64,000 nt of DNA from an uncultured Gammaproteobacteria bacterium (GTDB lineage: Bacteria > Pseudomonadota > Gammaproteobacteria > GCA-001735895). The notes under the pieces were generated by a model. That model was not told the DNA's origin. It saw only the letters and a list, made by a program, of their open reading frames with translations, and searched no databases. Every line of letters starts with the position of its first letter. The first letter of the stretch is position 1. Shown here piece by piece: positions 5,218-38,578 of this stretch. A program made the position numbers and the translations under genes. The stretch spans positions 52,462 through 116,461 of the forward strand of contig CAZAVY010000001.1 of NCBI GenBank assembly GCA_964488685.1, in the 5' to 3' direction.

Positions 5218-6288
5218 TCAACGCTTAATGCCCGAATTATCGAGCCTGGCTATCGTCTGCGTGAGCTTGGCCAGCGATCTATCTTGCTTCGCTACCTTCT
5301 GCGCAAGTTTGTCCAGCGATTTATAGCGCGCGTTATTGCGATGCCAGAGTCTGTTTTCCAGTATCGGCGTACCGGATGAATAAACACCGGCCTGTCGAAT
5401 GTCTTTTGTTACCAGAGTCATGGCGGTTATGGTTACCTTGTCCGCCACCTTCAAATGACCCAGCACTACCGCCGCTCCGGAAATTTTACAGTAGCATCCA
5501 ATATTCGCGCTGCCGGCAATTCCAACACAGGCGGCAATCGCTGTGTGGGCGCCAATGCGCACATTGTGAGCAACCTGTATCTGATTATCGAGCTTACAAC
5601 CACGCTCGATCAGGGTGTTGTCAAGAGCCCCTCTGTCGACAGTCGTATTGGCACCAATTTCGACATCATCTTCGATTACGACACTGCCCAACTGAGGAAT
5701 TTTGTGCCATTGCTGCTGATGCAGTGCAAGCCCGAAACCATCGGCTCCGATGACCACGCCAGAGTGTAAAATGCAGCGATCTCCAACACTCACTGCATGC
5801 TCCAATACAACCCGACTGTGTAAATAACACTGTCGGCCGACAGTCGATGACCTGCCAATCACTGTACCTGCATCAATAGTGGTGTCGTCGCCGATCTCCA
5901 CATCGTCATCAATGACCACCAGCGCACCAATTCTTACGCCGTTGCCAATGCGGGCGCTATGCGCTATTTGCGCCGAAGAATGAATGATACTTTCAGCCTG
6001 CGGACTCGACTCCAGCCCAAGCGCCCTGATTGCGCCTGCAAAACTGTATTGCGGATTATCCGATAACAACAGTGCCTTATCACCTACCTCTGCGGCAATC
6101 TCCGCCGGCAGGATAACCGCGCTACATTGACTGGATGAGATCTCGACCAGGTACTTTCGGTCTTGAACAAAACTCAGATCGCCGGCAAGCGCCGACTTTA
6201 ACGATGCAACACCGTTGATATCCGTCTCGGAATCACCCCGGTACTGCAGTTGCAAGATCTCGGCCAGTTGCTTTAGTTTTAGGCTCAT
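5218..6288 (-). CDS. lpxD: UDP-3-O-(3-hydroxyacyl)glucosamine N-acyltransferase
   Basis: 356 aa with an N-terminal LpxD domain followed by long left-handed beta-helix hexapeptide repeats. Position is the conserved skp-lpxD-fabZ-lpxA order. Confidence 0.9.
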   Translation of the reverse strand: MSLKLKQLAEILQLQYRGDSETDINGVASLKSALAGDLSFVQDRKYLVEISSSQCSAVILPAEIAAEVGDKALLLSDNPQYSFAGAIRALGLESSPQAESIIHSSAQIAHSARIGNGVRIGALVVIDDDVEIGDDTTIDAGTVIGRSSTVGRQCYLHSRVVLEHAVSVGDRCILHSGVVIGADGFGLALHQQQWHKIPQLGSVVIEDDVEIGANTTVDRGALDNTLIERGCKLDNQIQVAHNVRIGAHTAIAACVGIAGSANIGCYCKISGAAVVLGHLKVADKVTITAMTLVTKDIRQAGVYSSGTPILENRLWHRNNARYKSLDKLAQKVAKQDRSLAKLTQTIARLDNSGIKR

Positions 6289-6340
6289 GATCTGTTACTG
6301 TCTTGTAAGTTAATGTATCGCTGGCAAGTGAGGGCGCTGG

Positions 6341-6874
6341 TTACTGTGCTTCTTCGCCCGAGTCCGACTGTCGTTTCAGCATTTCGATTGTCTCCGCGGT
6401 AATATCGATACGATCAGAGACATAACTGACCCCTTCGGTCAGAATCAGGTCAAACTCACCGTCATCGCCCTGCTTTTTCACAACGTTGGAAATCACATGC
6501 TGTAATTCTCGAATCTCTTCATTGCGACGCAAATTCTGATCTTCGCGAAATTCCTGCTCGAGAAATTTTAACTGACTAACCTTTAGTCGGATTTCCCGTT
6601 CCAGTTTTCGGCGCAGGTTCAAATCCGACTTGCTATCCGAATTTAGCTGCTCCTCCAGCATGAGGATTTCCTGTCGCTTTGCTCTAAGCTGTGCTTCACG
6701 AGGTTCAAACTCGGCCTTGAGGCGCTCTTCTACCTTGCGTGCCTGCGGCGCTTCTTTCAACACTCGCGCGGTATTGACAAAGCCAATCTTGTAATCCGAC
6801 TGCTGCGCCGATGCATTTTGAAATACCAACGCCAATAGCAGTATTAGAAATGAGCACTTAAATCTGTTCAACAT
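6341..6874 (-). CDS. skp: Periplasmic chaperone Skp (OmpH family)
   Basis: 177 aa with a signal peptide (LLALVFQNASA), then a coiled-coil rich in K/E/R/Q. It lies directly downstream of bamA. Confidence 0.85.
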   Translation of the reverse strand: MLNRFKCSFLILLLALVFQNASAQQSDYKIGFVNTARVLKEAPQARKVEERLKAEFEPREAQLRAKRQEILMLEEQLNSDSKSDLNLRRKLEREIRLKVSQLKFLEQEFREDQNLRRNEEIRELQHVISNVVKKQGDDGEFDLILTEGVSYVSDRIDITAETIEMLKRQSDSGEEAQ

Positions 6875-6879
6875 AATCT

Positions 6880-9189
6880 CTAAAAGCTCGCGCCTAGCGC
6901 GAATTGAAATTCCTGGGTTTCATCGCCGGATTCATCGTTAAGTGGAAACGCATAGCTAAACTCGATGGGACCGATAAATGAAAACCACTTGGCGGACAGC
7001 CCGACCGATTGCCGCAATTCATCTGTCTCGTAAGAGTCGACATCAGCGAACACACTTCCGAAGTCAAAGTATACCCCAACCCTGAATGTTTCTGAACTGC
7101 CCAGAGATTCGATCGGAAATATAACCTCTGCAGTTCCGATTACTTGAAGATTGCCACCGAAATTGTCGCCATTACTATCTACCGGGCCCAGGCTGTTAAA
7201 CTCGTAGCCCCTGACGGAACGTACTCCGCCCGCGGTAAACTTCTCGAAAATCGGTAAATCAACCGAATCGCCGTAACTATCGCCGTAACCGACCCTGCCT
7301 TTAAAATTTAAGGTGAAGGTTTTATTCAGGGCAAAAGCGGTTTGATGCCGATACCTGACTTTATAAAAATCGAGATCACCCGCTTGAAACTCGAACCTGA
7401 TGCTATTGAGAGATCCGGAATCCGCAAAAATTCTGCGATTACGGGTGTCCTTGGCGAGACCGATCGCAGCAAATACAGTGTCATACCTGCTACCATCAAT
7501 TTCGGATTGCGGGGTCGTTTCATCAAACTCATCGCTGTTGTTGATGATGAAATCGAAAACCTCATCTGACGATGAACCGGTTGTTTCAAGATCATTACGC
7601 AATACACCAAGCTCCAGTCTGAGCGTATTGAACTCCGATAAGGGAATACCGTAGTCGACCGACACGCTAATGCGATCAATTAAAAAGTTACTGGTGTTGT
7701 TTTCCGACGAATCGGTTTCAGTGAAAACGAAGTTAAAACCACGGCTGACACCGTCCGGCGTGTAGTAGGGATTCTTATACTTAAACGCAAAACGTTGTGA
7801 AGCCGCGGAATTATCGAAAGTAAACTCGACGGCGTTACCGGTACCAAAAATATTGTCATGTGCAAAGCCAAGGTTCAGAAGCGCTCCCTGTACCTGGGAA
7901 AAACCAAGGCCAACCTGAAGATTTCCAGAAAACCTTTCGCTCACTTCGATATTGATATCCACCTGGTCATCGGTATCGGCTACCTTTTGTAAATTGAATT
8001 TTACTGAACCAAGATAATTCAATCGTTGCAGCCGCACCTTCGAACGGTCAACCTTTGAACGCCGATACATTTCTCCTTCAAACTGTCGCATCTCCCGGCG
8101 CAGGACTAAATCCTTGGTTTTTTCATTCCCGCTAAAGTTAATATATCGAACCCGAACTTTTTTGCCTGGAACGACAAGAAACTGTAATGCCACGGTGTTA
8201 TTTTCTACATCGAGGTCGGTTTTTATCCTGATGTCGGCAAACGCATATCCATCCTCCCCGAGGCGTTTTTGCATTGCGCTGATGACGCTGTTTATTTTTT
8301 TACGGGAAAAAACTTCTCCCTCGCGAAAATTGATCAGGGCCCGCATCTCCACCGCATCGACTACCATTTCACCCGCCATCTTGATTTGATTGACGGTAAA
8401 TTGACTACCCTCGCGAATATTAACGGTGATACTGATGTCTTTTCGATCCGGGCTTATGGTTACTTGCTGCGAACTCACCTCGAACTGAATATAACCCCGA
8501 TCGAGATAGAACGACTTTAACGCTTCCAGGTCGGCCGTAAGTTTAGAGCTGGAGTATCCGTCATCGGCAAACCAGCCGGCACTGCTTGGTTCAAGCTCGA
8601 ACAAATCAAGTAAATCCTCGTCGTCGAAACCTTGATTACCGGTGATATTGATGGATTTTATGGTCGCCGATATACCTTCAGAAATAGTAATGTCGATTGC
8701 AATTCGGTTTTCATCCAATCTACGCCAATCGGCATCGATACGGGCTGCATACTTCCCCTGCGAGTAATAGACCTGCTGCAACTCCAGCTCAAGTTTTTTC
8801 AGTTTGTTTTCATCGAATATCCGGCCTTTAGACATATTGACCTGATCCAGTGCCTGCTCCAGGGATTCATCTTCGATATCTTTGTTACCTTCAAAGTTTA
8901 CTTCAGCAATCGAGGGCCGCTCCACCACTTTGATGATTAGCACATTTCCTCTCCGCAGCAATTCGATGTCGTCAAAAAAGCCGGTGGAGTAAAGCTCGCG
9001 AATAAGCTCAGGTGTACGTTCGGTATCGAGCGATTCGCCGACGTTAATGGGGAGGTAACTGAATACGGTACCGATGGTTATCTTCTTGATACCGACAACT
9101 TCGATATTTTCTACGATAAAGCTATCGGCATTCACCCCACAGGGCATCGACAACAGTACCAGGGCACTGATCCAGGCAGAAATTCGCAA
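6880..9189 (-). CDS. bamA: Outer membrane protein assembly factor BamA
   Basis: 769 aa with a signal peptide and repeated POTRA-like modules (IEVVGIKKITIGTV..., INITGNQGF..., INFSGNEKT...). The C-terminal beta-barrel ends in FALGASF. Confidence 0.93.
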   Translation of the reverse strand: MRISAWISALVLLSMPCGVNADSFIVENIEVVGIKKITIGTVFSYLPINVGESLDTERTPELIRELYSTGFFDDIELLRRGNVLIIKVVERPSIAEVNFEGNKDIEDESLEQALDQVNMSKGRIFDENKLKKLELELQQVYYSQGKYAARIDADWRRLDENRIAIDITISEGISATIKSINITGNQGFDDEDLLDLFELEPSSAGWFADDGYSSSKLTADLEALKSFYLDRGYIQFEVSSQQVTISPDRKDISITVNIREGSQFTVNQIKMAGEMVVDAVEMRALINFREGEVFSRKKINSVISAMQKRLGEDGYAFADIRIKTDLDVENNTVALQFLVVPGKKVRVRYINFSGNEKTKDLVLRREMRQFEGEMYRRSKVDRSKVRLQRLNYLGSVKFNLQKVADTDDQVDINIEVSERFSGNLQVGLGFSQVQGALLNLGFAHDNIFGTGNAVEFTFDNSAASQRFAFKYKNPYYTPDGVSRGFNFVFTETDSSENNTSNFLIDRISVSVDYGIPLSEFNTLRLELGVLRNDLETTGSSSDEVFDFIINNSDEFDETTPQSEIDGSRYDTVFAAIGLAKDTRNRRIFADSGSLNSIRFEFQAGDLDFYKVRYRHQTAFALNKTFTLNFKGRVGYGDSYGDSVDLPIFEKFTAGGVRSVRGYEFNSLGPVDSNGDNFGGNLQVIGTAEVIFPIESLGSSETFRVGVYFDFGSVFADVDSYETDELRQSVGLSAKWFSFIGPIEFSYAFPLNDESGDETQEFQFALGASF

Positions 9190-15714: not shown

Positions 15715-16890
15715 TTAATCCTTATCGACGGCCGTTTTTAACGCCGCTTTTTTAGTCACTGCTTTCTGGGTGGCTGCCTTATTAGTCGCTGCTTTCTTGG
15801 TGGCCGCCTTTTTAATAGTGGATTTCCTGGCTGCGGCTTTCTTCACCGCGGTTTTCGTGGGCGCCGCTTTCTTTACCGCGGTTTTGCTGGTTGCGGATTT
15901 TTTCGGTGCCGCTTTGTCGGCATCGTCATCGGCCACGGGTGCCTGCTCTGCTTTCGCAGTAACCGCTTCGCCTACCTCAGCAACCGATTCTTGCTTTGCT
16001 TCAGATTGCTTTCCCGCGGCCTCGGCACCGGTATCGGCAGTCTCGTTAACCGATGCCGCTAATTCACTTTCCCGGCTTTCGTGGGTCGCAACTTGCGGTA
16101 CTGACTTTCTGGAGGTGACCTTGACCCCGGGTTTCGTGGATACGGCGGCGGATTCGCTGTCGGCCTCAATCTCGATGAGCTCATTGCTGCCGTCATCGGC
16201 ACTAACAATGCTGCGTTTGCCGTCGAGAACGGCATCCGCCGCCAGCCTGGTATAAAGCTTGATGGCGCGCATCGAATCGTCGTTACCGGGAACGATATAT
16301 TCAATGTTGTCGGGTGAATTGTTGGTATCGACGATGCCGACCACCGGAATTCCGAGCTTGGTCGCTTCCTGTACGGCAATCTTTTCGAAACCGACGTCGA
16401 TGACGAACAGTACATCGGGAAGGCCACCCATCTGCTTGATTCCACCCAGGGTTTTTTCGAGTTTGTCCTGTTCCCGGGACAGTTGCAAAATTTCCTTTTT
16501 GTTGATTTTTTCGTAGTTGTTACTGATCGACAAATCCTCAAGTTCCTTCAGGCGTTTGATCGATGCGCGTACCGTACGAAAATTGGTCAGCATGCCACCT
16601 AGCCAGCGGTGATTGACGAACGGCATACCGCAACGCAGGGCTTCCTGTTTTATCGTATCACTGGCGGCACGCTTGGTGCCGACAAACATGATCTTGCCCT
16701 TTCTGGATGCGATCTTTCCGAGATAATTAACCGCATCCTTGCACATAGGCATGGTTTGTTCGAGGTTAATGATATGAATCTTGTTGCGCTCGCCAAATAT
16801 AAAGGGAGCCATTTTGGGGTTCCAGAACCGGGTTTGGTGACCGAAATGCACGCCCGCTTCCAACATTTCACGCATGGTGACGTTAGACAT
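15715..16890 (-). CDS. rpsB: 30S ribosomal protein S2 with a C-terminal extension of about 146 aa (acidic/Ala-rich, then Lys/Ala-rich)
   Basis: The first ~245 aa are collinear with E. coli S2 ([15 protein letters not shown]...). An extra tail follows and ends in [56 protein letters not shown]. Confidence 0.92.
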
Positions 16891-17113
16891 AAGTTTCTCC
16901 AGATGTCTGCTAAATAGCCTTTACGCGACTATTCCGGGTTAAGCCTCCACATACCCGACGTCTACGACCTGCTCTCTGGTAAAATGCAGGCACCCATAGG
17001 CGCGTTACGGCATGTGTGTGTCGTTAAAACATCAACTCTCGATGTTTTGATTAATTTAGCCTGGCGGTTGCCGAAGGCGCGCGCTTTATACCATAATCCC
17101 GTATTCCCAACAA
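16891..17113 (-). promoter_or_regulatory. Candidate rpsB promoter plus long structured 5' leader
   Basis: On the minus strand I read TTGTTG (17113-17108), a 17-nt spacer, then TGgTATAAA (extended -10, TATAAA at 17090-17085). This would give a leader of about 190 nt containing an 8-bp hairpin AAAACATC/GATGTTTT (17026-17048). In E. coli S2 autoregulates rpsB-tsf through a long conserved 5' UTR. I have not verified homology of this leader. Confidence 0.45.
17068..17097 (+). promoter_or_regulatory. Candidate sigma-70 promoter for map (divergent from, and overlapping, the rpsB promoter)
   Basis: TTGCCG (17068-17073), an 18-nt spacer, then CATAAT (17092-17097), 34 nt upstream of the map ATG. Confidence 0.3.
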
Positions 17114-17130: not shown

Positions 17131-17898
17131 ATGGGTATCATGATCAAATCCAGCGAAGAAATTGAAAAAATGCGGGTTGCAGGGAGACTCGCTGCCGAAG
17201 TGCTGTACATGATCGAACCCCATGTCGAACCCGGCGTGACGACTCAGCAACTGAATGATGTTTGCCATGATTTTATGGTAAACCAGCAACAAGTGGTGCC
17301 GGCACCCCTAAATTATCGGGGTTTTCCGCGTTCGATTTGCACCTCGGTCAACCACGTTGTTTGCCACGGCATTCCGGCGCATAAGAAACTCAAGAACGGC
17401 GATATTATCAATATCGACATCACCGTCATCAAAGATGACTACCACGGCGACACCAGTCGTATGTTCATGGTTGGCAAACCCACTGTGCAGGGGCAGCGAA
17501 TCTCAAGAATCGCCTATGAGTGTATGAAAATCGGTATAGAAATGATCAGACCAGGGGTGCGTTTGGGGGATATCGGTTATGCCATTCAACAACATGCCGA
17601 AAAACAAAATTGCAGTGTAGTGCGCGAGTATTGCGGTCATGGAATCGGCAAGATTTTTCACGAAGACCCCCAGGTTTTACATTACGGTAAACCGGATACC
17701 GGTCTTATGCTCGAAGCGGGAATGACGTTTACCGTCGAACCGATGATCAACCTGGGTAAGCGCATGGTAAAACTGCTGCCCGACGACTGGACCGTGGTTA
17801 CCAAGGACCATAGCCTGTCGGCGCAGTGGGAGCACACTAACCTCGTCACTGAATCTGGTTTTGAAGTGTTGACGCTGCATCCCGAATTCGGATTCTGA
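17131..17898 (+). CDS. map: Type I methionine aminopeptidase
   Basis: 255 aa collinear with E. coli Map (EEIEKMRVAGRLAAEVL, VCHGIP, DITVIKDDYHGDTS, REYCGHGIG, EPMIN, QWEHT). Confidence 0.94.
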   Translation: MGIMIKSSEEIEKMRVAGRLAAEVLYMIEPHVEPGVTTQQLNDVCHDFMVNQQQVVPAPLNYRGFPRSICTSVNHVVCHGIPAHKKLKNGDIINIDITVIKDDYHGDTSRMFMVGKPTVQGQRISRIAYECMKIGIEMIRPGVRLGDIGYAIQQHAEKQNCSVVREYCGHGIGKIFHEDPQVLHYGKPDTGLMLEAGMTFTVEPMINLGKRMVKLLPDDWTVVTKDHSLSAQWEHTNLVTESGFEVLTLHPEFGF

Positions 17899-20564: not shown

Positions 20565-22142
20565 ATGCAAAAGGCATTTGGGAAACCGATTGAACATGTG
20601 GTGGATGGCGAAAACAACGCGGTCGAATTTGACGTCGCTTATCCGATCATCGGTGATCCGCAGGTAGCAATTGAACAACTTAAAATTCGACATGGTAACA
20701 ATATCTACCTGCTGCCCATGTCGGGCACCTCGGCTGGTGGAGGCGTTTTCCAGGTCGATACCAAACCACCCGGTCCCATAGTAGGCTTGAAGTTCGATCC
20801 ACCGGCTAACCCGCGAGTTAGTATTTCCGCCCAACCTGAGCTTGCAAAGATCAGCCTCGATGAAATTGTCATTGATCCTGATCATCAGCAGGTAATCGCC
20901 GGCGGATCAATCACCCTGGATCAGATGAACCAGGCGCTTGCCCGGGAACTTGGCCATAGCTTCAAGGTACCCGGGGCTGATTTAACCAGCTATAGGTACG
21001 CAGCGGTCGGGGCCACTTTCATGACCGGGGGTATGGGGCCGCAGCGCAGGTATTTCAGTGATAGCGTAATCGAGATCTCACTCTATAACGGTACCGAAAC
21101 AGTTTCTATCGAAGGTGACAATTTAGGCGGATACGCCGGCACCTATGGCTGGACCGGGATAGTTTGCGCGCTGCGCTGTAACTACTATCGATTTCCTCAA
21201 AACGAAGTGGCGTTTGCACTGCCGGTTCCAGGGACTGGTAAACATATCGCGATGCTACTCGAGCATTTGTCAGCCTATTGTTATTTGAACCTGGAAACAG
21301 TTAAAGTCACTTCGCGATTCGGAACTCACGACCTGATTCTGGGAATCGAACATGTCAGTCGGGGGGCGATGCAACCATTGCTGAAAAGCACCGTCGACAA
21401 CCCGGCTCAAAAGCGAGCCGCGTCGTTATATCAGAAATGCCTGGCTTCAGCCGCGGACGGTCTGGTTTTTATAAACGGGTACAGCGATCAATCCGATGAC
21501 GAATTTTTGTTGAATCTCGCGGATGATCAGCAGGCAGAGGAATTGACAATCGCCGGGATAGGCCTCGAGTTTGCCGAGATTTTCAACGATGCGGAAGAAA
21601 TGCGCGCGGTACGTGAAGCTATCCCTTACGCCGCGCGCACCCAGGTTGCCGGCGGCAGATTAGTCTACCGGAATCACTCAGATGCCAATATCAGGATTAC
21701 GACGGTTGAAATCGCAGGAACGGTTGAGCAATTGTGGCAAATCAATCGTGATTACGTTGCCAGTGTCGAGCAATTTTTTGTCAATACTGCGGAGATTGAT
21801 GGCGAGATTCTGGTTTATGGTCACCTCAATCCCTACGGTGTCGATCCACATAATCGAGTGACGATGAGCAGTGATCATCAGCATGCGTTTGAGTACGGGT
21901 GTGACTTCTTGATCGAGCAGCGCGCGCGATACTATCGCTCCGTGGCCAAAATGTGCAACTCCGGCAAAGCGACATTCATCGGCGGTGAAAAAACTGCCGA
22001 TTCCGAGATTGCCATTTACCGCGCACTGGGAGGACCCGAACGTTCTCCGGCTGCTCTGTTCAAGCGTTTCAAACAACAGCGATCGACAATACGCGCAGCC
22101 GCAACAATGTTCAACTGGCGGGCACCGGAACCCTATATCTAA
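20565..22142 (+). CDS. Divergent FAD-binding (PCMH/VAO-type, GlcD-like) oxidoreductase family protein
   Basis: 525 aa starting 15 nt after glnD. The segment LPMSGTSAGGG...IDPDHQQVIAGGSITLDQMNQALARELGHSF...AAVGATFMTGGMGPQRRYFSDSVIEISLYNG matches the FAD_binding_4 pattern. The C-terminal GHLNPYGVDPHN sits where GHxGDGNxH is normally found. The assignment is from motif memory only. Confidence 0.5.
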   Translation: MQKAFGKPIEHVVDGENNAVEFDVAYPIIGDPQVAIEQLKIRHGNNIYLLPMSGTSAGGGVFQVDTKPPGPIVGLKFDPPANPRVSISAQPELAKISLDEIVIDPDHQQVIAGGSITLDQMNQALARELGHSFKVPGADLTSYRYAAVGATFMTGGMGPQRRYFSDSVIEISLYNGTETVSIEGDNLGGYAGTYGWTGIVCALRCNYYRFPQNEVAFALPVPGTGKHIAMLLEHLSAYCYLNLETVKVTSRFGTHDLILGIEHVSRGAMQPLLKSTVDNPAQKRAASLYQKCLASAADGLVFINGYSDQSDDEFLLNLADDQQAEELTIAGIGLEFAEIFNDAEEMRAVREAIPYAARTQVAGGRLVYRNHSDANIRITTVEIAGTVEQLWQINRDYVASVEQFFVNTAEIDGEILVYGHLNPYGVDPHNRVTMSSDHQHAFEYGCDFLIEQRARYYRSVAKMCNSGKATFIGGEKTADSEIAIYRALGGPERSPAALFKRFKQQRSTIRAAATMFNWRAPEPYI

Positions 22143-25493: not shown

Positions 25494-25517
25494 AGGGTGC
25501 GGCCGTACCCTCATTTT
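25494..25517 (+). terminator. Candidate intrinsic terminator of the CGL-CBS unit
   Basis: AGGGTGC-GGCC-GTACCCT forms a 7-bp stem (one G-U pair) with a 4-nt loop. It is followed by CATTTTG, a short U-tract, so confidence is moderate. Confidence 0.4.
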
Positions 25518-25544
25518 GACTTCCCCGGCAAAACATTATTAAAT
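25516..25544 (+). promoter_or_regulatory. Candidate sigma-70 promoter of the MotA/ExbB-like operon
   Basis: TTGACT (25516-25521), a 17-nt spacer, then TTAAAT (25539-25544), 54 nt upstream of the ATG at 25598. Confidence 0.4.
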
Positions 25545-25597
25545 GCCCCGGCACAGCCAGGTTTTGTAATAGCCTAATTTAACCAGAGATTCCCGCC

Positions 25598-26539
25598 ATG
25601 GAAATTCAGCGTCTACTCACCGGCCTAAGCCTCAAGATAATCATTCAGTTCTGGGCTGTGATCGTAGCCGTAGCGGTGTTGATCGGATTCAATTATGAGC
25701 TGATCTATCCCTTTTATTTTGAAAACCAGCTTACCAACACGGGAATCATTATCAACAGCGCCATTCTCGTCATACTGCTGGTGGGGCTTGGTAACATCTT
25801 TTATCACCTGCTGCGCTATCGGAAGGAGGAGACCGCCATTGCCCGGCTTGTTAAAAACGCCGAGGCATTACAGTCGGATTTGATGATAGGACTACCGGTC
25901 AATTCGATTGTCGCCAGGCGACATGAAACCATGCGCTCGATTGAGAACGCCAGGGGAGAAATCAATCACAGCGCGCTTGCAGCGATGCTGAACGCCGATG
26001 AGTCCACCCACTTCGGACTGATACGGTTTATTAACAATATCCTGATCCTGACCGGTGTTTTCGGAACCATTGTATCGCTATCAATTGCCCTGCTCGGCGC
26101 CTCCGACCTGATCGACTCGGCCGATGCCAGCATCGGTGGTATGGGCCTGGTTATTCATGGGATGTCGACAGCGCTGTCGACCACTATTACCGCGATCATG
26201 GCCTATGGCATTTTCGGATACTTTTACACGCGTCTGAACGATGTGCAAACTCAATTCCTGAGCAGCGTCGAACAACTGACTTCGGTGTATCTACTGCCTC
26301 GATATGTCAAAACAGGTGACGAAATCGTGCATCAGATGAGCGACCTGATTAAATCGGTGATCCTTGCCACCCACAAGCTTAAGCAGACTCAGGACACCTA
26401 TCACGATGCGGCAACGACACTGCAACAGACGATCACCGCAAGTCGGCAGCAAACCGATCAGCTGGCTGATGAAATGCACGGTATCAAGCGGATACTACGC
26501 GAGGGTTTTCGTCTGCCTCCAACCGATAAAGAGCAGTAG
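25598..26539 (+). CDS. MotA/TolQ/ExbB-family proton-channel protein (4 TM in 2+2 arrangement) with a C-terminal helical tail of about 95 aa
   Basis: 313 aa. Two N-terminal TM helices are followed by a soluble loop of about 100 aa. The MotA_ExbB core then reads FINNILILTGVFGTIVSLSIALLGA ... GMSTALSTTITAIMAYGIFGYFYTRLN (compare the family pattern LGLLGTV ... AL.TT..GL..AIP). A Q/L/T-rich helical tail runs to the stop. Confidence 0.8.
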   Translation: MEIQRLLTGLSLKIIIQFWAVIVAVAVLIGFNYELIYPFYFENQLTNTGIIINSAILVILLVGLGNIFYHLLRYRKEETAIARLVKNAEALQSDLMIGLPVNSIVARRHETMRSIENARGEINHSALAAMLNADESTHFGLIRFINNILILTGVFGTIVSLSIALLGASDLIDSADASIGGMGLVIHGMSTALSTTITAIMAYGIFGYFYTRLNDVQTQFLSSVEQLTSVYLLPRYVKTGDEIVHQMSDLIKSVILATHKLKQTQDTYHDAATTLQQTITASRQQTDQLADEMHGIKRILREGFRLPPTDKEQ

Positions 26540-26545
26540 GCGAAC

Positions 26546-27544
26546 GTGGACACCAGTTTCCCATCGATCGGCGGCAGCCATGCCGGACTCGGAGGCGAAA
26601 ACAGTTTCTGGCCGTCATTTACCGATATCATGATGGTGGTGACAATGATCTTCCTGATGGCGACCAGTATTCTGGTGGTACGCAACTGGCAACTGGTTGC
26701 CGAGCTTCGGGAAAGCGTCGCTGCCGAACAGATCGCGAGTAAAATGATCGAGTCCACCTCGCTCGAAAACGCGACACTGGAAGAGCGACTTGCCAACGCC
26801 GAGCAAAGTAATTCGATCCTGCGTCTGCGCCTGTTAAAGAAGGAAGAAGAAATAATCCTTGCGCAGGCTGCGATTCGAGAACAGGAAACCAGCATAGCCT
26901 CGATGGAACTGCGAAACAGCGATTTGCAACTGTCACTGGAGCAAACCCGGTCGCTACTGTCCGTAGCCAACCTTGAAATCGATGCCGTGAACGCGCAATT
27001 TGAGGAAATGTCCCGGCAAGTTTCGGCTTTGAGTCAACAGCTCGCACGACAACAACTGGTTGGCGATCAAGTCCTGGGAGAGCTTGATATCGCCCTCGAC
27101 AAGATTGCCAGCCTGTCGAAATCAAGCGCCTTACAACAGCAAAGCATCAACCAGCTGACCCGGGAGAAGACCTTGCTGGACCAGGAAATCGAGTCCTACA
27201 ATCAGCAGCTACTGACGTTAAAAGGCGACTATGAAACGGTCAGGTCAAAGTATCAAGAGCTGATCAAACCGGCGCGTAGCGCCAAGGGCAAGTTCATCGC
27301 CGAAGTCTATTATGTCAAGGGCGTATCCGGAAACCTGATTCGCTACCGGCAAGCGGGTGATCAGCAATTCAGCAGGCTCAGCCTGGCTGAAGTAGAACAG
27401 CGCCTGACGCAGTTGAAGCGCGAACACGGTAAGGATCTATACGTCAAGATAATCATTCCCGAGGACAGCGGGCTAACCTATAGCGAAGCCTGGGAATTCA
27501 TGCGCAGCCTGCTGGTCAAATTTGATTACTATTACCAGGAGTAA
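26546..27544 (+). CDS. MotB/ExbD/TolR-like single-pass partner protein with a long coiled-coil stalk and a small C-terminal alpha/beta domain (no OmpA-like domain seen)
   Basis: 332 aa starting at a GTG 6 nt after the upstream stop, with AGG 5 nt upstream. No in-frame ATG lies upstream of the TM helix. The N-terminus FWPSFTDIMMVVTMIFLMATSILVV has an Asp (codon 26624-26626) at the position of the protonatable Asp of MotB/ExbD/TolR. About 190 aa of heptad-like Q/L/E/S-rich sequence follow (about 26684-27250). The C-terminus reads FIAEVYYVKG...LYVKIIIPEDSGLTYSEAWEFMRSLL. Confidence 0.7.
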   Translation: MDTSFPSIGGSHAGLGGENSFWPSFTDIMMVVTMIFLMATSILVVRNWQLVAELRESVAAEQIASKMIESTSLENATLEERLANAEQSNSILRLRLLKKEEEIILAQAAIREQETSIASMELRNSDLQLSLEQTRSLLSVANLEIDAVNAQFEEMSRQVSALSQQLARQQLVGDQVLGELDIALDKIASLSKSSALQQQSINQLTREKTLLDQEIESYNQQLLTLKGDYETVRSKYQELIKPARSAKGKFIAEVYYVKGVSGNLIRYRQAGDQQFSRLSLAEVEQRLTQLKREHGKDLYVKIIIPEDSGLTYSEAWEFMRSLLVKFDYYYQE

Positions 27545-27628: not shown

Positions 27629-27705
27629 GTCCCCGTGGCACAACTGGATAGCGCGACGCCCTCCTAAGGCGTAGGTTGCCCGTTCGAATCGGGCCGGGGA
27701 CACCA
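27629..27705 (+). tRNA. tRNA-Arg (anticodon CCU)
   Basis: A 77-nt cloverleaf folded by hand. The acceptor stem is GTCCCCG/CGGGGAC. The anticodon stem is ACGCC/GGCGT with loop CTCCTAA (anticodon CCT). The T arm is GCCCG-TTCGAAT-CGGGC. The discriminator is A and CCA is encoded. The ends resemble E. coli argW. Confidence 0.9.
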
Positions 27706-27789: not shown

Positions 27790-28104
27790 TCAGCCATATA
27801 TAACATGCATCTGATCGAGCTCTTCAGCCATATCCTGCGCAGTATGAAACAAGTCATACTTCTGCTGCATTCCAACCCAGACATTAGGGCCATTACCAAG
27901 AACTTTGCCCAAACGTAGGGCCATAGCAGTGGTAATAGGCCGCGCCTCATTTAAGATATCGTAAAGCATCGGGCGCGATATATTGACGCTTCGAGCAAAC
28001 TCAGCTTTGGATACACCCAGCGCTGGAAGTACATCTTCGCGCAAGATCGCACCAGGATGAGTCGGGGCCCTGGTTACCGCCCCCCTTTCGTATATTTTAG
28101 TCAT
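27790..28104 (-). CDS. higA: HigA-type antitoxin (XRE-family HTH)
   Basis: 104 aa. HPGAILREDVLPALGVSKAEFARSVNISRPMLYDILNEARPITTAMALRLGKVLG is the HigA/VapI HTH pattern. The start shares 1 nt with the higB stop (TAATG). Confidence 0.85.
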   Translation of the reverse strand: MTKIYERGAVTRAPTHPGAILREDVLPALGVSKAEFARSVNISRPMLYDILNEARPITTAMALRLGKVLGNGPNVWVGMQQKYDLFHTAQDMAEELDQMHVIYG

Positions 28105-28379
28105 TAGTGATAATCCTCTAAGTTAATGTGAATGGCGTCTTCAGCTTTCCATGCAAATGTTATGCGCCAATTACCGTTAACGCTCACACTGTAGCGCTTT
28201 GGCTTGCCTTTAAGCGGATGGAAATCCCACCCGGGTATATTCATGTCTTCAGGTTCCAAAGCAGCTTCAAGAGCATCCAACAAACGAAGGCATTTATCCT
28301 TTTGCTGAGCTTTTACCTTTGCGCTGTTGCCCTTTTCGAATAATTGCTTTAAGCCTTTGTGCTTGAAGCTTTTGATCAT
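28104..28379 (-). CDS. higB: HigB-type toxin (RelE/ParE superfamily, plasmid maintenance system killer)
   Basis: 91 aa. MIKSFKHKGLKQLFEKG...LDALEAA...DMNIPGWDFHPLKGKPKRYSVSVNGNWRITF is the classic HigB signature. The toxin-first gene order is typical of higBA. Confidence 0.88.
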   Translation of the reverse strand: MIKSFKHKGLKQLFEKGNSAKVKAQQKDKCLRLLDALEAALEPEDMNIPGWDFHPLKGKPKRYSVSVNGNWRITFAWKAEDAIHINLEDYH

Positions 28380-28540: not shown

Positions 28541-28794
28541 TTAAACATTACGCGCTTCAAACTGCCTTACAGCCCGGCTGACGATCATGTAATGCACCTT
28601 AAAAACTCGGCTATTTCTCGCATTGTAAAGGCACCGGAATAATATGCCTGCGCCATTGCATCGTTTCGGGAAGTATACCGACGCTGGTACTCGTCTAGTG
28701 ACTTCGCCAATAAACGCCGGTATTGGCCATCCGTGTAGGCCAACGGGATTTGTAGGAATCGCCCTACAAGATCGCGAGCAATTATCGATTGCAA
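28541..28794 (-). pseudogene. C-terminal HTH fragment of a Y1 (IS200/RayT-like) transposase-family gene, frameshifted
   Basis: Frame a reads ...RNDAMAQAYYSGAFTMREIAEFL and then stops. Frame b continues KVHYMIVSRAVRQFEARNV. Joined, they give the DnaA-like HTH tail (AY.sG.yTm.EIa..f.vHy..VSR) that I associate with REP-associated/IS200-like transposases. The shift lies at a T5 run near 28600. No catalytic N-terminal domain is present. Confidence 0.45.
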
Positions 28795-28880
28795 CGGTAA
28801 TATCAGCCTCCCATACTGAGATAATAAAAATTAGGCTATCCCAAAGAGGCCAATCAAATGACGGTAATTTCAGGATCGTA

Positions 28881-29829
<949 letters not shown>

Positions 29830-32941: not shown

Positions 32942-34921
32942 TTGCTATCGATTCAACGCCTTTTATTATTGTTTCTGCTGTCGACCCAGGTAACGGCGTA
33001 TGCACAAACTAACGAGGCCACCGCCGAGGATTTCTTTGAAGACTCGCCCTTGATTCTGACCGCATCGCGGATGTCAAAACCACTGCTGGAATCCCCGGCC
33101 AGCGTTAGCGTAATCAGCCGCCAGATGATCGAGTCTTCGGGCATTCGTGAAATTGCCGAACTGTTTCGACTGGTACCTGGATTCGTGGTGGGGTTTCACA
33201 GTGGCCATGCGCCTGCCGTCACTTACCAGGGCCTGGGACTGGAATTTGGTCGCCAGATACAGGTATTGATCGATGGCAGATCGGTATTTATTCCGTCTTT
33301 CGGTGGCGTACCCTGGTCTAACCTGCCGCTGTTGATCGAAGATATCGAGCGAATTGAAGTCATTAGAGGACCCAATGCCGTTACTTACGGGGCCAATGCG
33401 TTTCTGGCAACCATCAATATCATTACCCGTCACGCTGCCGAAGACCTCGGCGCCCAATATTCGGTCACCGTGGGCGACAATACCAACCCCGATATCGAAG
33501 ATGCCTATTTCCGCATCGGGAGTCACCACCAGATACTCGATTGGCGTCTGAGCATCGGCGCCATAAACGATGAAGGGTTTAGCGACATCAATGATTCCAA
33601 GCGCATCGCAAAGATCAATTTTCGAATGGATCTGGAATCGAGCAGCAATCAATTCTGGACTTTGCAGCTCGGTTCCAGTGATAGCGTTGCGGGGCGTGGA
33701 TTCCCACCCTCCCCCGACACTACGACCGATATCGAACGCGATGAAGAAGCGACCAACCAATATTTCAGCTTGCAATGGGAAGGTGTCTGGGGCTCGAGAA
33801 CCTCAATTGCCCGTTTGACACACACTCGTCAAGAAGTAATCGACCACTATGATCCAGGCCCGTTTACACTGCAACTGGACGCGGGCGCTTTTCCCGGAGT
33901 AACCACCTTGATCGATTTTGACCGCAATTCCGAACGTACCGAACTTGAGTTCACCCAAACCGATGACATCAATGACAACCTACGTCTTGTCTACGGCGGC
34001 AGCCTGCGACAGGACAGGGTTAAATCTATCTTTTTGCTGAATAGACGAAATTTTCAGGATGTCGAAAGTAATCGACTGTTCGGGGGCATCGAGTGGCGAT
34101 TTGGTAGAAACTGGTTACTCGATATCGGCGTTATGCTGGAGGATTCAACCCTGACTGAACGCGAGAATTCGCCCCGTATATCGCTGATTCGAAAATTCGG
34201 CAAAACCCATGCATTGCGCCTTGTGGCATCAACCGCTAAACGTAACCCGATTCTTTGGGAGTTCGATGGAGAAACCGAGTTTACGGTAAATATTCCGTTG
34301 TTCGGCACCGTCGTCGTCCCCACATGGTTCGGCAACGACGGCATTGAACCGGAAAGCATTGAATCTTACGAAATAGGTTTGCGCAGTCATTTCGGGGCCG
34401 GGTGGGCAAGTGATATCAAGATTTTCAGATATGATATTGACGATCACATTGTAAACACAACAAGCCCGATCGACACGGGTCCACTGCTAGGCGTTATACC
34501 GGTTGGCACCCCGGTCAACGGCGAATCCACGAAGGTGACAGGGATAGAGGTAGCGCTCGATTACGCAGTTGACAATCAACTGGAACTGCACACCGGGTTC
34601 AGTTTCGTCGACACCGACTCGAGCCTGCGAGACCTGCAGGAGTCATTTCCCGAGTACACCGCTTTTATCAGCGCGCGATACCGGGTAAATTCCAAACATG
34701 AAGTATTTGCGGCTTACTATTATCTGGACGAAATTAGCTGGCTCGATAGCAGTTCGACCACGCCGAGCGCAAATCGACTGGATTTACGCTATGCCTATAA
34801 ACTGACCGGTGCCTTTCAACTGGAAATTATCGGCCAGAATCTGATCGAGGACATCGAAGACTACGAAGATGAAAATATTCACGACCAGGTGATGTACCTG
34901 AGGTTGTCTGGCGGATTTTAA
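32942..34921 (+). CDS. TonB-dependent outer-membrane receptor (small, 659 aa)
   Basis: A TTG start has AGGAG 6 nt upstream. A signal peptide is followed by the TonB-box-like PLILTASR and the plug domain (ESPASVSVISRQMIESSGIREIAELFRLVPG...IERIEVIRGPNAVTYGANA). The beta-barrel ends in YLRLSGGF. Confidence 0.85.
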   Translation: MLSIQRLLLLFLLSTQVTAYAQTNEATAEDFFEDSPLILTASRMSKPLLESPASVSVISRQMIESSGIREIAELFRLVPGFVVGFHSGHAPAVTYQGLGLEFGRQIQVLIDGRSVFIPSFGGVPWSNLPLLIEDIERIEVIRGPNAVTYGANAFLATINIITRHAAEDLGAQYSVTVGDNTNPDIEDAYFRIGSHHQILDWRLSIGAINDEGFSDINDSKRIAKINFRMDLESSSNQFWTLQLGSSDSVAGRGFPPSPDTTTDIERDEEATNQYFSLQWEGVWGSRTSIARLTHTRQEVIDHYDPGPFTLQLDAGAFPGVTTLIDFDRNSERTELEFTQTDDINDNLRLVYGGSLRQDRVKSIFLLNRRNFQDVESNRLFGGIEWRFGRNWLLDIGVMLEDSTLTERENSPRISLIRKFGKTHALRLVASTAKRNPILWEFDGETEFTVNIPLFGTVVVPTWFGNDGIEPESIESYEIGLRSHFGAGWASDIKIFRYDIDDHIVNTTSPIDTGPLLGVIPVGTPVNGESTKVTGIEVALDYAVDNQLELHTGFSFVDTDSSLRDLQESFPEYTAFISARYRVNSKHEVFAAYYYLDEISWLDSSSTTPSANRLDLRYAYKLTGAFQLEIIGQNLIEDIEDYEDENIHDQVMYLRLSGGF

Positions 34922-34928
34922 CAGGCCA

Positions 34929-35855
34929 ATGAAAAAAGGAATTGTAGCTATGAGCTGGCTTAAGGGACTAATTCTAAGCTTTTTACTGTTTTCACCCATG
35001 TGCCTGTGGGCCGCACCGCAAGGCGTGAATCAACTAGTTATCGTGAAAAGCAGTAACAATACCTATTTTGACCAGACCGCAACCACCCTGATTAAACATA
35101 TTGATCCGGGTATCCAGTTCAAGATTGTGTTGGCGCAGGATTTATCCCGTTTTTCAGGCCAGCAATCCGAGCAAATCCTTTTTGTCGCCCTTGGTAAAGC
35201 GGCGGTTGTTGCACTCAACAAACTCGATTTCGAGCCGAATTCAATCAACGCATACCTCACACATGAACAATACAGACTTTTAAAACTCGAAAAACAGACC
35301 ACGGTACTACTGAACCAGCCATTGTATCGCTACCTCGCGTTTTGCAAGTTCATGCTTGGATCCGAGTCAATCGGGATTATCACCGATAAAGGCGCCGAAC
35401 CGTTTCAAGAGCAGGTTAGAACGCTAAAAGGAATCCAACTGAGACTAAACACCTACCAGATAGATCCGGATAACAAACTACTCCCCGTGCTGCGCGATCT
35501 ACTCAGGCAGAACGATGTCCTGTTAATGCTTCCACGTCAATCAGTTTACAACCGGGACACGCTCAAAGGCGTTTTACTCACCAGTTATCGAAGCCGCAAA
35601 CCGGTCATAAGCTACTCACCAGCCCATGTTAAATCAGGAGCACTGGCCTCAATTTACTCATCCCCGGTGGATATCGGTAGACATCTGGCGCTCCTGGTTC
35701 ACCAGAAATTGCGTCATCAAACTACTACCGGCCCAGTGTTTGAGTTTGCACGGTTTTATTCGATTACGAAAAACCGGAGGGTAGCACGCGCACTCGGAAT
35801 AAACTTACCTGAAGAACGGGATATACGCTCAAAACTGGACAGGTTAGGACAATGA
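34929..35855 (+). CDS. Periplasmic ABC_sub_bind (PF04392-like) binding-protein-fold protein, not linked to any transporter here
   Basis: 308 aa with a signal peptide (LLFSPMCLWA). The overall pattern resembles type-I periplasmic binding proteins of the PF04392 family (from memory). It starts 7 nt after the receptor and has an ATGA overlap with the kinase gene. Confidence 0.5.
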   Translation: MKKGIVAMSWLKGLILSFLLFSPMCLWAAPQGVNQLVIVKSSNNTYFDQTATTLIKHIDPGIQFKIVLAQDLSRFSGQQSEQILFVALGKAAVVALNKLDFEPNSINAYLTHEQYRLLKLEKQTTVLLNQPLYRYLAFCKFMLGSESIGIITDKGAEPFQEQVRTLKGIQLRLNTYQIDPDNKLLPVLRDLLRQNDVLLMLPRQSVYNRDTLKGVLLTSYRSRKPVISYSPAHVKSGALASIYSSPVDIGRHLALLVHQKLRHQTTTGPVFEFARFYSITKNRRVARALGINLPEERDIRSKLDRLGQ

Positions 35856-38578
35856 AGCGCCTTGGTATCAAATTTCAGATTTTGTTGATCACGCTGATTC
35901 CGGTGTTTATGATTGATCTGTTTTTTACCTATAAGCATATCAACGGCAGTATCGAGCAAGCCAATGAACTTCTTCGGAGCAAAGGCCAGATCATCGCCCG
36001 GCAGATTGCCGGCGCCTCGGAATTCAACCTGTTTACCGGCAACGATAACCAGATCCAGTACCAGCTTAGCCAGTCGGTAGATACCAACGACATTGTACTG
36101 GCGTCGGTTTACGACTGGCAGGGAAAAATGATAGCTGAATCGGTCTCGCCTTTATTTAAACAAGCGCAAGCGACCGAGTATCATTACTTTCGCCAGGCCA
36201 TCATGTCCCAAAGCATTGAACATTCAGACGTCTTTACACCCGAATTTGAAGGCGTTCGTCAATCCAGAATCCTGGGCTGGGTACATCTCTATATCTCTCG
36301 CCAGCAGCTGCAACGAACAACTCGGCAAATTATTGTCGATTCCATCGTATTTTTTGTCACAATTCTGATCATAGCGATAATCCTGACTGTTGTTATCAGC
36401 CGTCGAATCACACAGCCGATTTTCCGGTTAATGGAACATTTGAAGCTCGTCGAGACTGGGCAACTCGGAAAAACAATCGCCCCTACGGAAGCCAATGAAA
36501 TCGGTGCGGTACAAAAAGGCTTCAACCGTATGACCCATGCACTGCTCGCCAATCGTCGACATCTGAACCTTCGAATCCAGCAGGCAACCCAGCAGCTCAA
36601 TGAAGCAATTACCGACCTGGAAACCAAAAATCGCGAACTGGGATTTGCTCGAGACGAAGCACAGAACGCGAACCGGACCAAGTCTGAATTTCTCGCCAAT
36701 ATGAGTCACGAAATACGCACCCCAATAAATGGTATCAAGGGTTTTATCAGTTTACTGAGCCAATCGGAACTGGATCAATCACAACAACGCTACGTCGATA
36801 TAGTTCTGAAGTCGACCAGCGACCTGATCAGTATCGTTAACGAAATCCTGGATTTTTCGAAAATGGAATCGGGTAAATTACATATCGTCGACGAGGAGTT
36901 TGACCTTTACGAAGTCATAGAACAGACCCGCGACATACTTTTTATCAATGTGCTGACAAAAAACATTGATTTAAATCTAATCATATACAGCGACACTCCA
37001 CGCCGGGTGGTTGGAGACAAACTGAGGCTGAAGCAGATTTTGTTAAATCTGATCGGCAATGCGATCAAGTTCACCGACCAGGGTCAGGTCGTTATTAAGG
37101 TCAGTCTTAAAGACAGTAATTCCGACCAGTTCGTCGTCGAAATTTCTGTCGAGGATACTGGAATAGGCATTTCAGAACAGGATCAGCGAACCCTTTTCCA
37201 GGCTTTCAGCCAGGTTGAAAGTTCCGCTACGCGACGTTTTACCGGAACAGGATTGGGTCTGGTGATCAGTAGCAACCTCGCTAGCCTGATGTGCGGTGAT
37301 ATCAGCATGCATTCGACACCTGGAGAAGGATCGAGGTTTACGCTACAGCTACCCTTCAAGTATGGCAGCAAACACGAAATGGCGGATTCCTGCGAGGCAG
37401 AAATGCCGAATGCACTGATATTTGCCGCCACCAATAATTGCCTTATGGAAACCCGCAGCCTGTACGACAGATCCGGGGTGAACACCGAGTGCCACCTGAT
37501 CGACAATCTAAAGGGAAGCGATCCTGTCACGCAATGCATTCGGCGCAACCTCGCCTATATCGATATACTGGTATTTGATTTACGCCATATAAATATTGAT
37601 CTGGAGAAAGTGCTTGATCAGGAAATTGCCGACGCTGTGCGCATCATTTTCATGGATTATGACCAGGTTTCCGAACTACCGGTTACCCTACGCCGGGTAG
37701 AATTTGCTTCAATTATCAATACCACGGAATCGATCGAAAAACTTGTCAGCAGGAATAGCGAACCCGACCCTGAAATATCTCCCATTGACCCGCAGCCTCG
37801 ATCTCCAAGCAAAAGAGTACTGCTGGTGGATGACAACCAGGTAAATCTGCAGCTCGCAAGCGAATTAATTCGACTGTGGGGGCACGATGTCATCGCGCTA
37901 GATCATGGGAGCAAATTACTGGAAACCTATGAGCATCGGGAATTCGACCTGATCATTCTCGATATCCAGATGCCCGATATTGACGGCATCAGCCTGCTGC
38001 ACATGATGCGGGAACTTAAACCCGCAGACCAGACTCCAGTTGTCGCATTAACCGCTAATGTATTGAACGACGAAGCCGGGCGACTGATCGAACTGGGATT
38101 TGACTATTTCGTCGGCAAGCCAATCGATGAAGATAAATTTCGTTCGTTATTGGACGGGAGCCCACAACGCCAGCAATCGACAGAAAATAAACCGCATGAA
38201 CCCGAACATAACCCTGATTGTTCGGTTGACTATGCAAAATCATTGGCCCTTTCTGCGGAAAACGAATCACTGTTGAAGCAAATTTTCGAGATAATCCAGC
38301 GTGATATTCCAGATCAACAACTGCAACTTAGCAATGCACTAGCCCAGCTAGACCAGGATAAGCTTGCCGCAATTGTACATAAACTTCATGGCGTTACCTG
38401 TTATGCAAGCCTGCCTCGCTTGCGTCGCAGGGTACTGGGATTTCAGCAACGCCTGGCCCATGACAGTAGCGCCCCGCTGGATAAGTCGGTGCAAAAATTG
38501 AACGAGGAGCTGGGGTTGGTAAAACTGGAGGTAGGACGCTTGCTGGAACAAATGGATGCCGAAGGGATATCCAGCTAG
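35852..38578 (+). CDS. gacS: BarA/GacS-type tripartite hybrid sensor histidine kinase (TM-periplasmic-TM-HAMP-HisKA-HATPase-linker-REC-Hpt)
   Basis: 908 aa and collinear with E. coli BarA as I remember it, including the N-terminal sensor region and HAMP. The H-box is [18 protein letters not shown], and the N/G boxes are [13 protein letters not shown] and GTGLGL. The REC domain reads [11 protein letters not shown]...DIQMPDIDG...KP, and the Hpt reads [17 protein letters not shown]. The cysM and rlmD neighbours match barA/gacS synteny in E. coli and P. aeruginosa. Confidence 0.7.

Follow-up and report, generated by a model that had tools for sequence, protein, structure and literature searches.

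The window, a 64,000-nucleotide stretch of DNA from an uncultured marine gammaproteobacterium (GTDB lineage GCA-001735895; assembly GCA_964488685.1, contig CAZAVY010000001.1, positions 52,462 to 116,461), contains two adjacent genes, referred to here as A and B, which form a two-gene transcription unit with its own promoter on the core chromosome. The two proteins are homologs of the A and B subunits found in the ion-driven 5:2 motor superfamily (MotAB, ExbBD, TolQR, and ZorAB). Judged by sequence, the nearest known relative of the pair is ZorAB of the Zorya defense system, rather than MotB, ExbD, or TolR. The reading favored here, with moderate confidence, is that the pair is a stand-alone motor of the 5:2 type that would work through a periplasmic stalk of B and serve a housekeeping role in the cell envelope. 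The fold and the likely mechanism of the pair are familiar. What is unfamiliar is the architecture of B, the place of the pair in the core genome, and its kinship to Zorya. The known outputs of 5:2 ion-driven motors are the flagellum, TonB, TolA, gliding together with type IX secretion (T9SS), SiiE secretion, and Zorya. One of the papers on such motors says that further motor-driven trans-envelope systems await discovery. Neither window protein matched a Pfam, NCBIfam, or PADLOC model at threshold, and the literature that could be searched, which dealt with 5:2 motors, Zorya, the evolution of MotAB, and periplasmic force transducers, yielded no description of the A-B family. This agrees with an initial annotation of the locus, made from the sequence, which did not recognize the pair as a described system. 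Database labels for A read "hypothetical", and those for B read "hypothetical", "chromosome segregation ATPase", or "myosin heavy subunit". The features of the locus are as follows.

25494..25511, + strand: hairpin of 7 pairs (4 G-C) with TTTT after it; on weak evidence, it may terminate the cystathionine-beta-synthase-like gene upstream
25514..25545, + strand: conserved putative promoter block, with TTGACT at 25516-25521, a 17-nt spacer, and TTAAAT at 25539-25544
25598..26539, + strand: gene A, a predicted MotA/ExbB/TolQ/ZorA-type channel subunit with four transmembrane (TM) helices at about residues 12-31, 48-70, 144-166, and 181-208
26027..26221, + strand: A residues 144-208, the TM3-loop-TM4 channel core (NNILILTGVFGTIVSLSIALLGASDL ... 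GMSTALSTTITAI), with T157 and T195/T196
26222..26536, + strand: A residues 209-313, a cytoplasmic helical extension of ~105 amino acids (aa), from AlphaFold2 (AF2) secondary structure
26546..27544, + strand: gene B, a predicted axle-type subunit made up of a short N-terminus, a single TM helix that carries Asp27, a long helix, and an alpha/beta domain at the C-terminus
26609..26680, + strand: B residues 22-45, the TM helix with FWPSFTDIM; the Asp27 codon is GAT at 26624-26626
26681..27265, + strand: B residues 46-240, a continuous helix that presumably forms a dimeric coiled coil with parallel chains; conserved over its first ~50 residues and variable in the middle
27266..27541, + strand: B residues 241-332, a conserved C-terminal domain (PAR..GK ... 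LYVKIIIPxDSGLxYxEAWxF ... YDYYYQ) with a predicted beta-beta-beta-alpha-beta-alpha(-beta) order

In the open reading frame (ORF) listing, gene A encodes 313 aa from an ATG start and gene B encodes 332 aa from a GTG start, and the two genes lie on the same strand with a spacing of 6 nt. Nameless proteins identical to both are present on one 121-kb contig in NCBI records. The initial annotation described the genes as a unit of their own, preceded by a hairpin with a U-tract (25494-25517) and a TTGACT-N17-TTAAAT promoter. The unit and its promoter held up. Two blocks, TTTTGACTTC and AAAACATTATTAAATG, which enclose TTGACT-N17-TTAAAT, were invariant in 8 species, while the remaining intergenic DNA around them (a region of 180-260 nt) diverged across the same 8 species. 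Because both blocks are invariant in a diverged surrounding, the pair appears to have its own conserved promoter. TTGACT-N17-TTAAAT is thus a candidate promoter that is well supported by this conservation as a real signal, even though its TTAAAT fails the -10 rule of the scanner. The hairpin is present at 25494-25511 and is followed by TTTT, but its status as a terminator was rejected: terminator-like sites numbered 3 against 2.7 +/- 1.9 in shuffled sequences, which is no excess, and the hairpin sequence was not kept in relatives. No Rfam family matched the leader of A. At the other end of the unit, a tRNA-Arg(CCT) gene lies 3' of B at 27629-27705, and a promoter-like TTAACA-18-TACAAT was found immediately 5' of it, where the initial annotation had placed a tRNA promoter.

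Sequence searches with A gave matches at the margin of detection. The window protein matched Pfam MotA_ExbB (PF01618) with an E-value of 0.0036 and 17.5 bits (cut-off 22.9) over profile positions 19-125 of 127, gave a marginal ZorA2 match in PADLOC, and found nothing in NCBIfam. The same Pfam profile matched 48 of 59 relatives of A at E <= 0.01 (best 3.5e-7), and the PADLOC ZorA models matched 20 of the 59. Searches of PDB sequences with A, both as a single sequence and as a profile, returned coiled-coil noise from the tail only, and a fold search was therefore needed. An AF2 model of A built on the 59-sequence alignment had a predicted local distance difference test (pLDDT) score of 89.4 and a predicted template modeling score (pTM) of 0.71. 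When this model was compared with the PDB by Foldseek, the top 48 matches were all ExbB, TolQ, PomA, MotA, or ZorA, with probabilities of up to 1.00 and TM-scores of 0.3-0.6. The top structural match was ExbB (9ddo_B, E 4.8e-4), and TolQ was also among the best. On the evidence of this model, the MotA_ExbB fold that had been assigned to A from its sequence is present, and A is a member of the MotA/ExbB/TolQ/ZorA fold, that is, of the A subunits of 5:2 motors. The 2+2 TM topology proposed earlier, with both termini inside, was borne out by hydropathy, loop charges, and the AF2 helices. The periplasmic loops (33-47 and 167-180) contain no Lys or Arg (K/R), and the cytoplasmic loop (70-142) contains 9.

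The most conserved stretch of A is TM3-loop-TM4. L151, G153, G156, T157, L161, L165, A192, and T195 were invariant in the 59 relatives, and T196 was nearly so. In hhalign comparisons, the channel motifs GxFGT and ALxxT of A aligned with E. coli TolQ and ExbB, and T157 and T196 fell on T145/T178 of TolQ and T148/T181 of ExbB. The cytoplasmic helical tail, put at ~95 aa in the initial annotation, is present and is rather ~105 aa long. In the AF2 model, the TM4 helix continues to residue 236 and, after a turn at 237-239, is followed by a single helix of 65 residues (240-304). The tail ends in a conserved L-x-x-G-F-R-L tip in which L300, G303, F304, and R305 are invariant or nearly so. ALSTT and GFRL are 111 residues apart in 42 representatives, and elsewhere the spacing commonly differs by +7n; the other spacings are often 118, 125, 132, or 146 (representatives P0241-P0390). 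Some relatives have lengthened tails that recall ZorA in length, namely P0296 (669 aa) and P0389 (451 aa). The tail of the 669-aa protein is built of repeats of ~45 aa, and its partner is a 439-aa B that keeps WPSFTD and YDYYYQ (locus L090, 8001-12785). At this locus a Fic-domain gene and an uncharacterized 246-aa gene lie 3' of B.

The single TM helix of B carries an Asp where it had been annotated. GAT was read at the codon, and W22, P23, and D27 were invariant in 26 diverse relatives, while FWPSFTDIM (residues 21-29) was invariant or nearly so across 36 relatives. Residues 1-24 are predicted to be disordered, yet Phe5 is nearly invariant. In the AF2 model of B, this disordered segment is followed by an uninterrupted helix (25-239; pLDDT > 90 for residues 90-220) and a beta/alpha domain (250-330). 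Which of the known axle proteins does B resemble? A profile of the N-terminal 95 residues found ZorB structures in the PDB (8vvn_B, E 2.2e-7 over 75 residues; 8vvi_A, E 2.1e-5; 8qyd_F, E 1.7e-3), with the Asp aligned to the ZorB Asp. Besides ZorB, significant matches were to designed helices only, and ExbD reached just E 0.29. MotB, PomB, and TolR were not found in the PDB by the B family profile. PADLOC ZorB1 models matched 32 of the 36 B relatives. Because the N-terminal profile finds ZorB structures and ZorB1 models match the relatives, the axle module of B appears to be ZorB-like. The Pfam families PF13677 (MotB_plug), PF00691 (OmpA), and PF02472 (ExbD/TolR), which had been suggested as a check on B, matched none of the 36 relatives at E <= 0.01. 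The earlier description of B as a MotB/ExbD-like protein therefore stands insofar as B is a divergent axle-type subunit with a helical extension, but its closest relative is ZorB, not MotB, ExbD, or TolR.

The helix that follows the membrane segment of B is long and of restricted length. The spacer from the membrane to the PAR motif was 160-216 residues in 71 of 75 relatives, with a median of 195, which corresponds to ~29 nm if straight. Spacer lengths step by seven (160, 167, 174, 188, 195, 202, 209, and 216; relatives in L001-L084). Because length changes occur in heptads, the stalk is predicted to be a canonical coiled coil. Both of its ends are conserved and its middle is variable. The C-terminal domain that follows is strongly conserved, with P242, R244, G248, Y256, L298, Y299, P305, S308, G309, L310, E314, A315, F318, and D327-Y329 invariant in the 36 relatives. 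By Foldseek, the best target-normalized TM-score for this domain was to the periplasmic domain of TolR (5by4; 0.55, root-mean-square deviation 4.3 A over 102 columns). This match ranked 14th, with E 0.25, and scores were about as good for uS11 and RNase-H-like folds. An OmpA-like fold was not among the Foldseek matches. Comparison by hhalign with E. coli TolR and ExbD gave no significant match, although a strand-Asp-helix segment could be aligned with ExbD. The loci retrieved contained no ExbD or TolR genes. A TolR-like label was not given to this domain because the hhalign comparison was not significant and the Foldseek E-value was 0.25.

Relatives of A are numerous. A set of 5.8 billion proteins gave 3,062 matches, a search at the 50%-identity level gave 359 clusters, and a GTDB search with a 12-sequence A alignment placed relatives in at least 478 species representatives. 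Nearly all of the 80 best GTDB carriers are uncultured Gammaproteobacteria from the sea or from sediments. Examples among the 80 are the Olavius algarvensis Gamma 3 symbiont, a Solemya gill symbiont, Sedimenticola, Chromatiaceae, Thiohalomonadaceae, and Thiotrichaceae. Of the 85 sources sampled (84 loci and the window), 76 had a called A, and B came directly after A in 75 of these 76, with gaps of -46 to +33 nt. Distant pairs beyond the 76 loci retained both the adjacency and the motifs. The neighborhood check revealed no third gene common to all 76 loci; the neighbors are housekeeping genes that vary by clade, with cystathionine enzymes in the clade of the window and queA/tgt, thiC, and hemN elsewhere. 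Two contigs labeled Urechidicola sp. and Polaribacter sp. (L028 and L030, Bacteroidota metagenome-assembled genomes) carry the pair at 64-65% identity. They are probably mis-binned because their flanking genes (clusters 23 and 24) are shared with the gammaproteobacterial window.

The pair belongs to the core genome and is vertically inherited rather than mobile. A and B diverge about as much as their surroundings (72-79% identity versus 72-91% for housekeeping neighbors), and the pair was not found in 72,556 plasmids, 50,697 phage records, or IMG/VR. The order A-B-tRNA-Arg is kept across the clade of the window, including related species that lack the HigBA insertion. The tRNA-Arg beside B thus reflects ancestral synteny, and the HigBA insertion is on the 3' side of the tRNA. 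In the window, a HigA-like gene (27790-28104, - strand) and HigB (28104-28379, - strand; PF05015) both lie 3' of tRNA-Arg. Relatives have a FAD_binding_4 gene after the tRNA, of which the window keeps only a fragment (28644-29567); the cyclopropane-fatty-acid-synthase-like gene is missing 3' of the tRNA, and P-II is a 54-aa fragment (29653-29817, - strand). In other words, island-like material adjoins the pair without including it. The initial annotation had linked the pair to a tRNA-Arg island with a toxin-antitoxin system and mobile debris, and had raised a role in defense. These links were not supported, because A relatives occur in so many species, the housekeeping neighbors vary by clade, plasmid and phage matches are absent, the tRNA synteny is ancestral, and the pair, which lies 5' of the tRNA, diverges like its housekeeping neighbors.

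Although no gene is universal beside the pair, an orphan MlaC-family gene (PF05494, E 6e-26) recurs in 13 of the 76 loci, from three clades, either in what appears to be one operon with the pair or no more than 3 kb away. In eight loci (L039, L040, L042, L044, L045, L046, L048, and L051) it is on the strand of A and 9-49 nt upstream of it. In four (L064, L073, L076, and L081) it is 840-885 nt downstream of B, with one small gene for a secreted-looking product in between, and in L056 it is 2.7 kb from the pair. No MlaC-family gene is present in the 64-kb window. In two further loci of one lineage (L093 and L094), an OmpA-domain gene lies 190 nt after B (6246-7079).

The surroundings of the pair in the window were judged from 20 ORFs scanned against Pfam and from others identified via annotated relatives. 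Flagellar, Tol/Pal, TonB-protein, and Zor effector genes were not present among these ORFs, and the earlier statement that no output partner is encoded nearby holds for them. Neighbors include BamA, RseP, LpxD, Map, GlnD, LepA, DegP, NadB, GlnE, and PNPase; the region is core chromosome, and the remainder of the window is likewise ordinary. About 5.4 kb downstream of the pair is a gene for a TonB-dependent receptor (32942-34921) that is not syntenic with the pair in relatives. It is followed by genes for a 308-aa protein with a weak, sub-threshold ABC_sub_bind-like match and for a hybrid histidine kinase (35852-38578) with sCache, HAMP, and receiver domains, both of which likewise lack synteny to the pair in relatives. 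On the other side of the pair, an Rfam match to the t44 small RNA was found at 16938-17038 on the - strand (56.4 bits; gathering score 44), between an ORF at 15715-16890 (- strand) and the methionine aminopeptidase gene (17131-17898). A 525-aa ORF at 20565-22142 (+ strand) has no Pfam match and is kept in several related loci.

How does the pair compare with known motor systems? The comparison with Zorya (types I-III; PDB 8vvn, 8vvi, and 8qyd) shows a shared motor core: the TM-Asp module of B and the helix after it match ZorB, ZorA is among the fold matches of A, and A, like ZorA, ends in a helical tail in the cytoplasm. Beyond this core, however, the pair shows none of the features that define Zorya. 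All Zorya subtypes have ZorA tails of ~70 nm, and the peptidoglycan-binding domain of ZorB is integral to the system (PMC11946911). In contrast, the tail of A comprises ~105 aa, and B has no OmpA-like peptidoglycan-binding domain, but instead the 195-residue coiled coil and a different terminal domain. There are no ZorC, ZorD, ZorE, ZorF, or ZorG genes beside the pair, and PADLOC returned only weak ZorA/ZorB matches and coiled-coil noise. The pair is also syntenic in the core genome, outside defense islands and not on mobile elements.

ExbB-ExbD-TonB and TolQ-TolR-TolA provide the best structural matches of A, and the channel threonines and motifs align. The job proposed for the pair, in which inner-membrane ion-motive force would be carried across the periplasm, is also similar, and the terminal domain of B has the strand-helix order of TolR and ExbD, with TolR giving the highest target-normalized TM-score (5by4, 0.55; E 0.25). 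Unlike these systems, A has four TM helices rather than the three of ExbB and TolQ, B has neither a PF02472 match nor a significant hhalign match to TolR or ExbD, and the two-gene unit lacks a third subunit of the TonB/TolA type while having a long helical spacer within B. MotAB and PomAB share with the pair the 2+2 TM topology of A, fold matches (PomA and MotA), and the position of the Asp at the N-terminal end of the TM helix of B, preceded by W-x-x-[FY]-x-D. The Asp of B aligns with Asp32 of E. coli MotB at a pairwise E-value of 0.016. Unlike MotB, B has no MotB_plug or OmpA domain, and no flagellar genes occur in the window genes examined or in the flanks of the loci. A canonical pair with MotA_ExbB and MotB_plug/OmpA domains lies 2 kb upstream of A-B in two loci of one lineage (L097 and L098, 549-2053). 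Because both pairs coexist there, A-B does not replace a canonical MotAB-type pair. GldLM and PorLM offer an architectural analogy only, in that a B-type dimer acts as a far-reaching periplasmic output shaft and an A-type subunit has a cytoplasmic helical extension; neither GldL nor GldM was matched by A or B in sequence or in fold. GldL has two TM helices, the GldM helix carries Arg instead of Asp, and the periplasmic part of GldM is made of globular domains without a coiled coil.

How might the A-B pair work? By homology, five A subunits would encircle two B helices. H+ or Na+ would pass the threonines of TM3 and TM4 of A (T157 and T195/T196) to Asp27 of B, and every ion passage would rotate the A pentamer (A5) relative to the B dimer (B2). 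The anatomy of B suggests that the output is borne by B itself, with axle and transducer fused in one protein. After the conserved post-membrane segment RNWxLVxxLR..., the two B chains may pair as a heptad coiled coil of ~195 residues, and ~29 nm of straight coiled coil would be enough for most or all of the periplasm. The small conserved alpha/beta domain at the end of this stalk would then bind a target in the peptidoglycan or the outer-membrane layer. Such a motor would couple the inner-membrane ion-motive force to the outer envelope, as TolQR-TolA, ExbBD-TonB, and GldLM do, and the five short tails of A, which end in the invariant GFRL tip, might serve as a cytoplasmic handle. The TolR-TolA-like fusion raised in the initial annotation is a reasonable functional analogy for B, but the match of the C-terminal domain to the TolR fold is not significant. 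The pair probably has a role in the cell envelope. This role would be one of housekeeping and not of defense because the pair behaves as core genome. The MlaC-family neighbor lends weak support to an envelope role, and the OmpA-domain gene after B in two loci points the same way.

Several observations weigh against this model. The AF2 model of B was built on a shallow alignment (66-100% identity), because a further profile homology search gave the same close clade, and its pTM is 0.32. In three loci (L037, L038, and L090), the B helices are 260-300 residues long and, if straight, would exceed a normal periplasm. The C-terminal domain, which would bind the target, has no Pfam family and no significant PDB sequence match by its profile, and no outer partner is conserved beside the pair. 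In the window B, there is no K/R before the TM helix and there are two after it (R46 and R55), so the positive-inside rule does not favor an N-terminus inside the cell. The cytoplasmic N-terminus of E. coli ExbD is similarly acidic.

The kinship to ZorAB invites the alternative that the pair is a minimal Zorya, in which B senses infection or envelope damage, the motor starts to turn, and cytoplasmic effectors encoded elsewhere are recruited by the short tail of A. Indeed, no known proteins are closer in sequence than ZorB and ZorA, the helical tail at the C-terminus of A ends in an invariant tip, and some relatives have far longer tails built of repeats (P0296 and P0389), one of them with a Fic-domain gene after the pair. 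This alternative is nonetheless improbable. A tail of ~105 aa differs from one of ~70 nm, and none of the 36 B relatives has the OmpA-like domain (cf. PMC11946911). No effector gene is conserved beside the pair, which is inherited vertically as syntenic core genome in at least 478 species and was found on no plasmid or phage, and the sole island-like material in the window, HigBA, sits beyond the tRNA. A second alternative is that the pair is an ordinary MotAB, TolQR, or ExbBD paralog that energizes a known machine (flagellum, Tol-Pal, TonB, gliding, or secretion) encoded elsewhere in the genome. Superfamily and fold are the same, the analysis covered 64 kb of this genome, and a TonB-dependent receptor lies 5.4 kb away. 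However, the receptor is not syntenic in relatives, none of the 36 B relatives has a MotB_plug, OmpA, or ExbD/TolR Pfam domain, and the B family profile reaches ZorB in the PDB and not MotB, PomB, or TolR. A has four TM helices and a tail where ExbB and TolQ have three TM helices, a canonical pair coexists with A-B 2 kb away in two loci, and the 195-residue stalk and terminal domain of B leave no obvious need for a protein of the TonB/TolA type. An ordinary paralog is therefore unlikely.

It is also conceivable that the fold has been kept without ion-driven rotation, and that the pair is a degenerate channel or a static strut or spacer, for instance a ruler in the periplasm or a tether that links the inner membrane to the peptidoglycan or outer membrane. 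The narrow, ruler-like range of stalk lengths (160-216 residues in 71 of 75) and the position of window A below the Pfam threshold are consistent with this idea. Yet the best conserved residues in both proteins are those of the motor (Asp27 and WPSFTD in B; T157, T195/T196, and GxxGT in A), which is not expected of a passive strut and makes a non-working motor quite unlikely. Finally, B could be inserted the other way round, with its long helix and terminal domain in the cytoplasm, bundled with the A tails, and with an output wholly inside the cell. The charges around the TM helix of B (no K/R before it, R46 and R55 after it) would fit, as would a correlation between A-tail and B-helix lengths across the 76 GTDB loci (Spearman 0.56), in which the longest B helices belong to the clades with longer A tails. 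In locus L090, too, both are greatly lengthened. However, the idea of a shared compartment that this length coupling suggested was not upheld in five further pairs (for example, A 155/B 199 and A 146/B 181). Moreover, the N-terminal module of B is homologous to that of ZorB, whose N-terminus is inside, with the Asp at the same end of the helix, and the similarly acidic N-terminus of E. coli ExbD is cytoplasmic. An inverted topology is thus very unlikely.

The stand-alone envelope motor can be taken one step further, to a proposal that is tentative and rather doubtful: the pair may represent an unrecognized class of 5:2 motor whose axle protein would double as the transducer across the envelope. 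In this class, the ZorB-like Asp helix would run into a coiled-coil drive shaft or tension rod of ~29 nm and a new target-binding domain. Its function would be a core envelope function in a large clade of marine, often sulfur-oxidizing or symbiotic Gammaproteobacteria, possibly in periplasmic lipid traffic in view of the MlaC-family neighbor, and the pair would be a non-defense lineage from or beside which the Zorya motor evolved. If the favored reading is true, a conserved family with a fused, stalk-type B would add an output type to the handful known for 5:2 motors, and a system of two proteins could reveal how rotation of the B dimer becomes work across the periplasm. The kinship to ZorAB would make the pair a housekeeping comparator for the Zorya sensor-motor and a clue to the origin of that defense motor. 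More than 3,000 database proteins that now carry "hypothetical"-type labels could gain a sensible family assignment.

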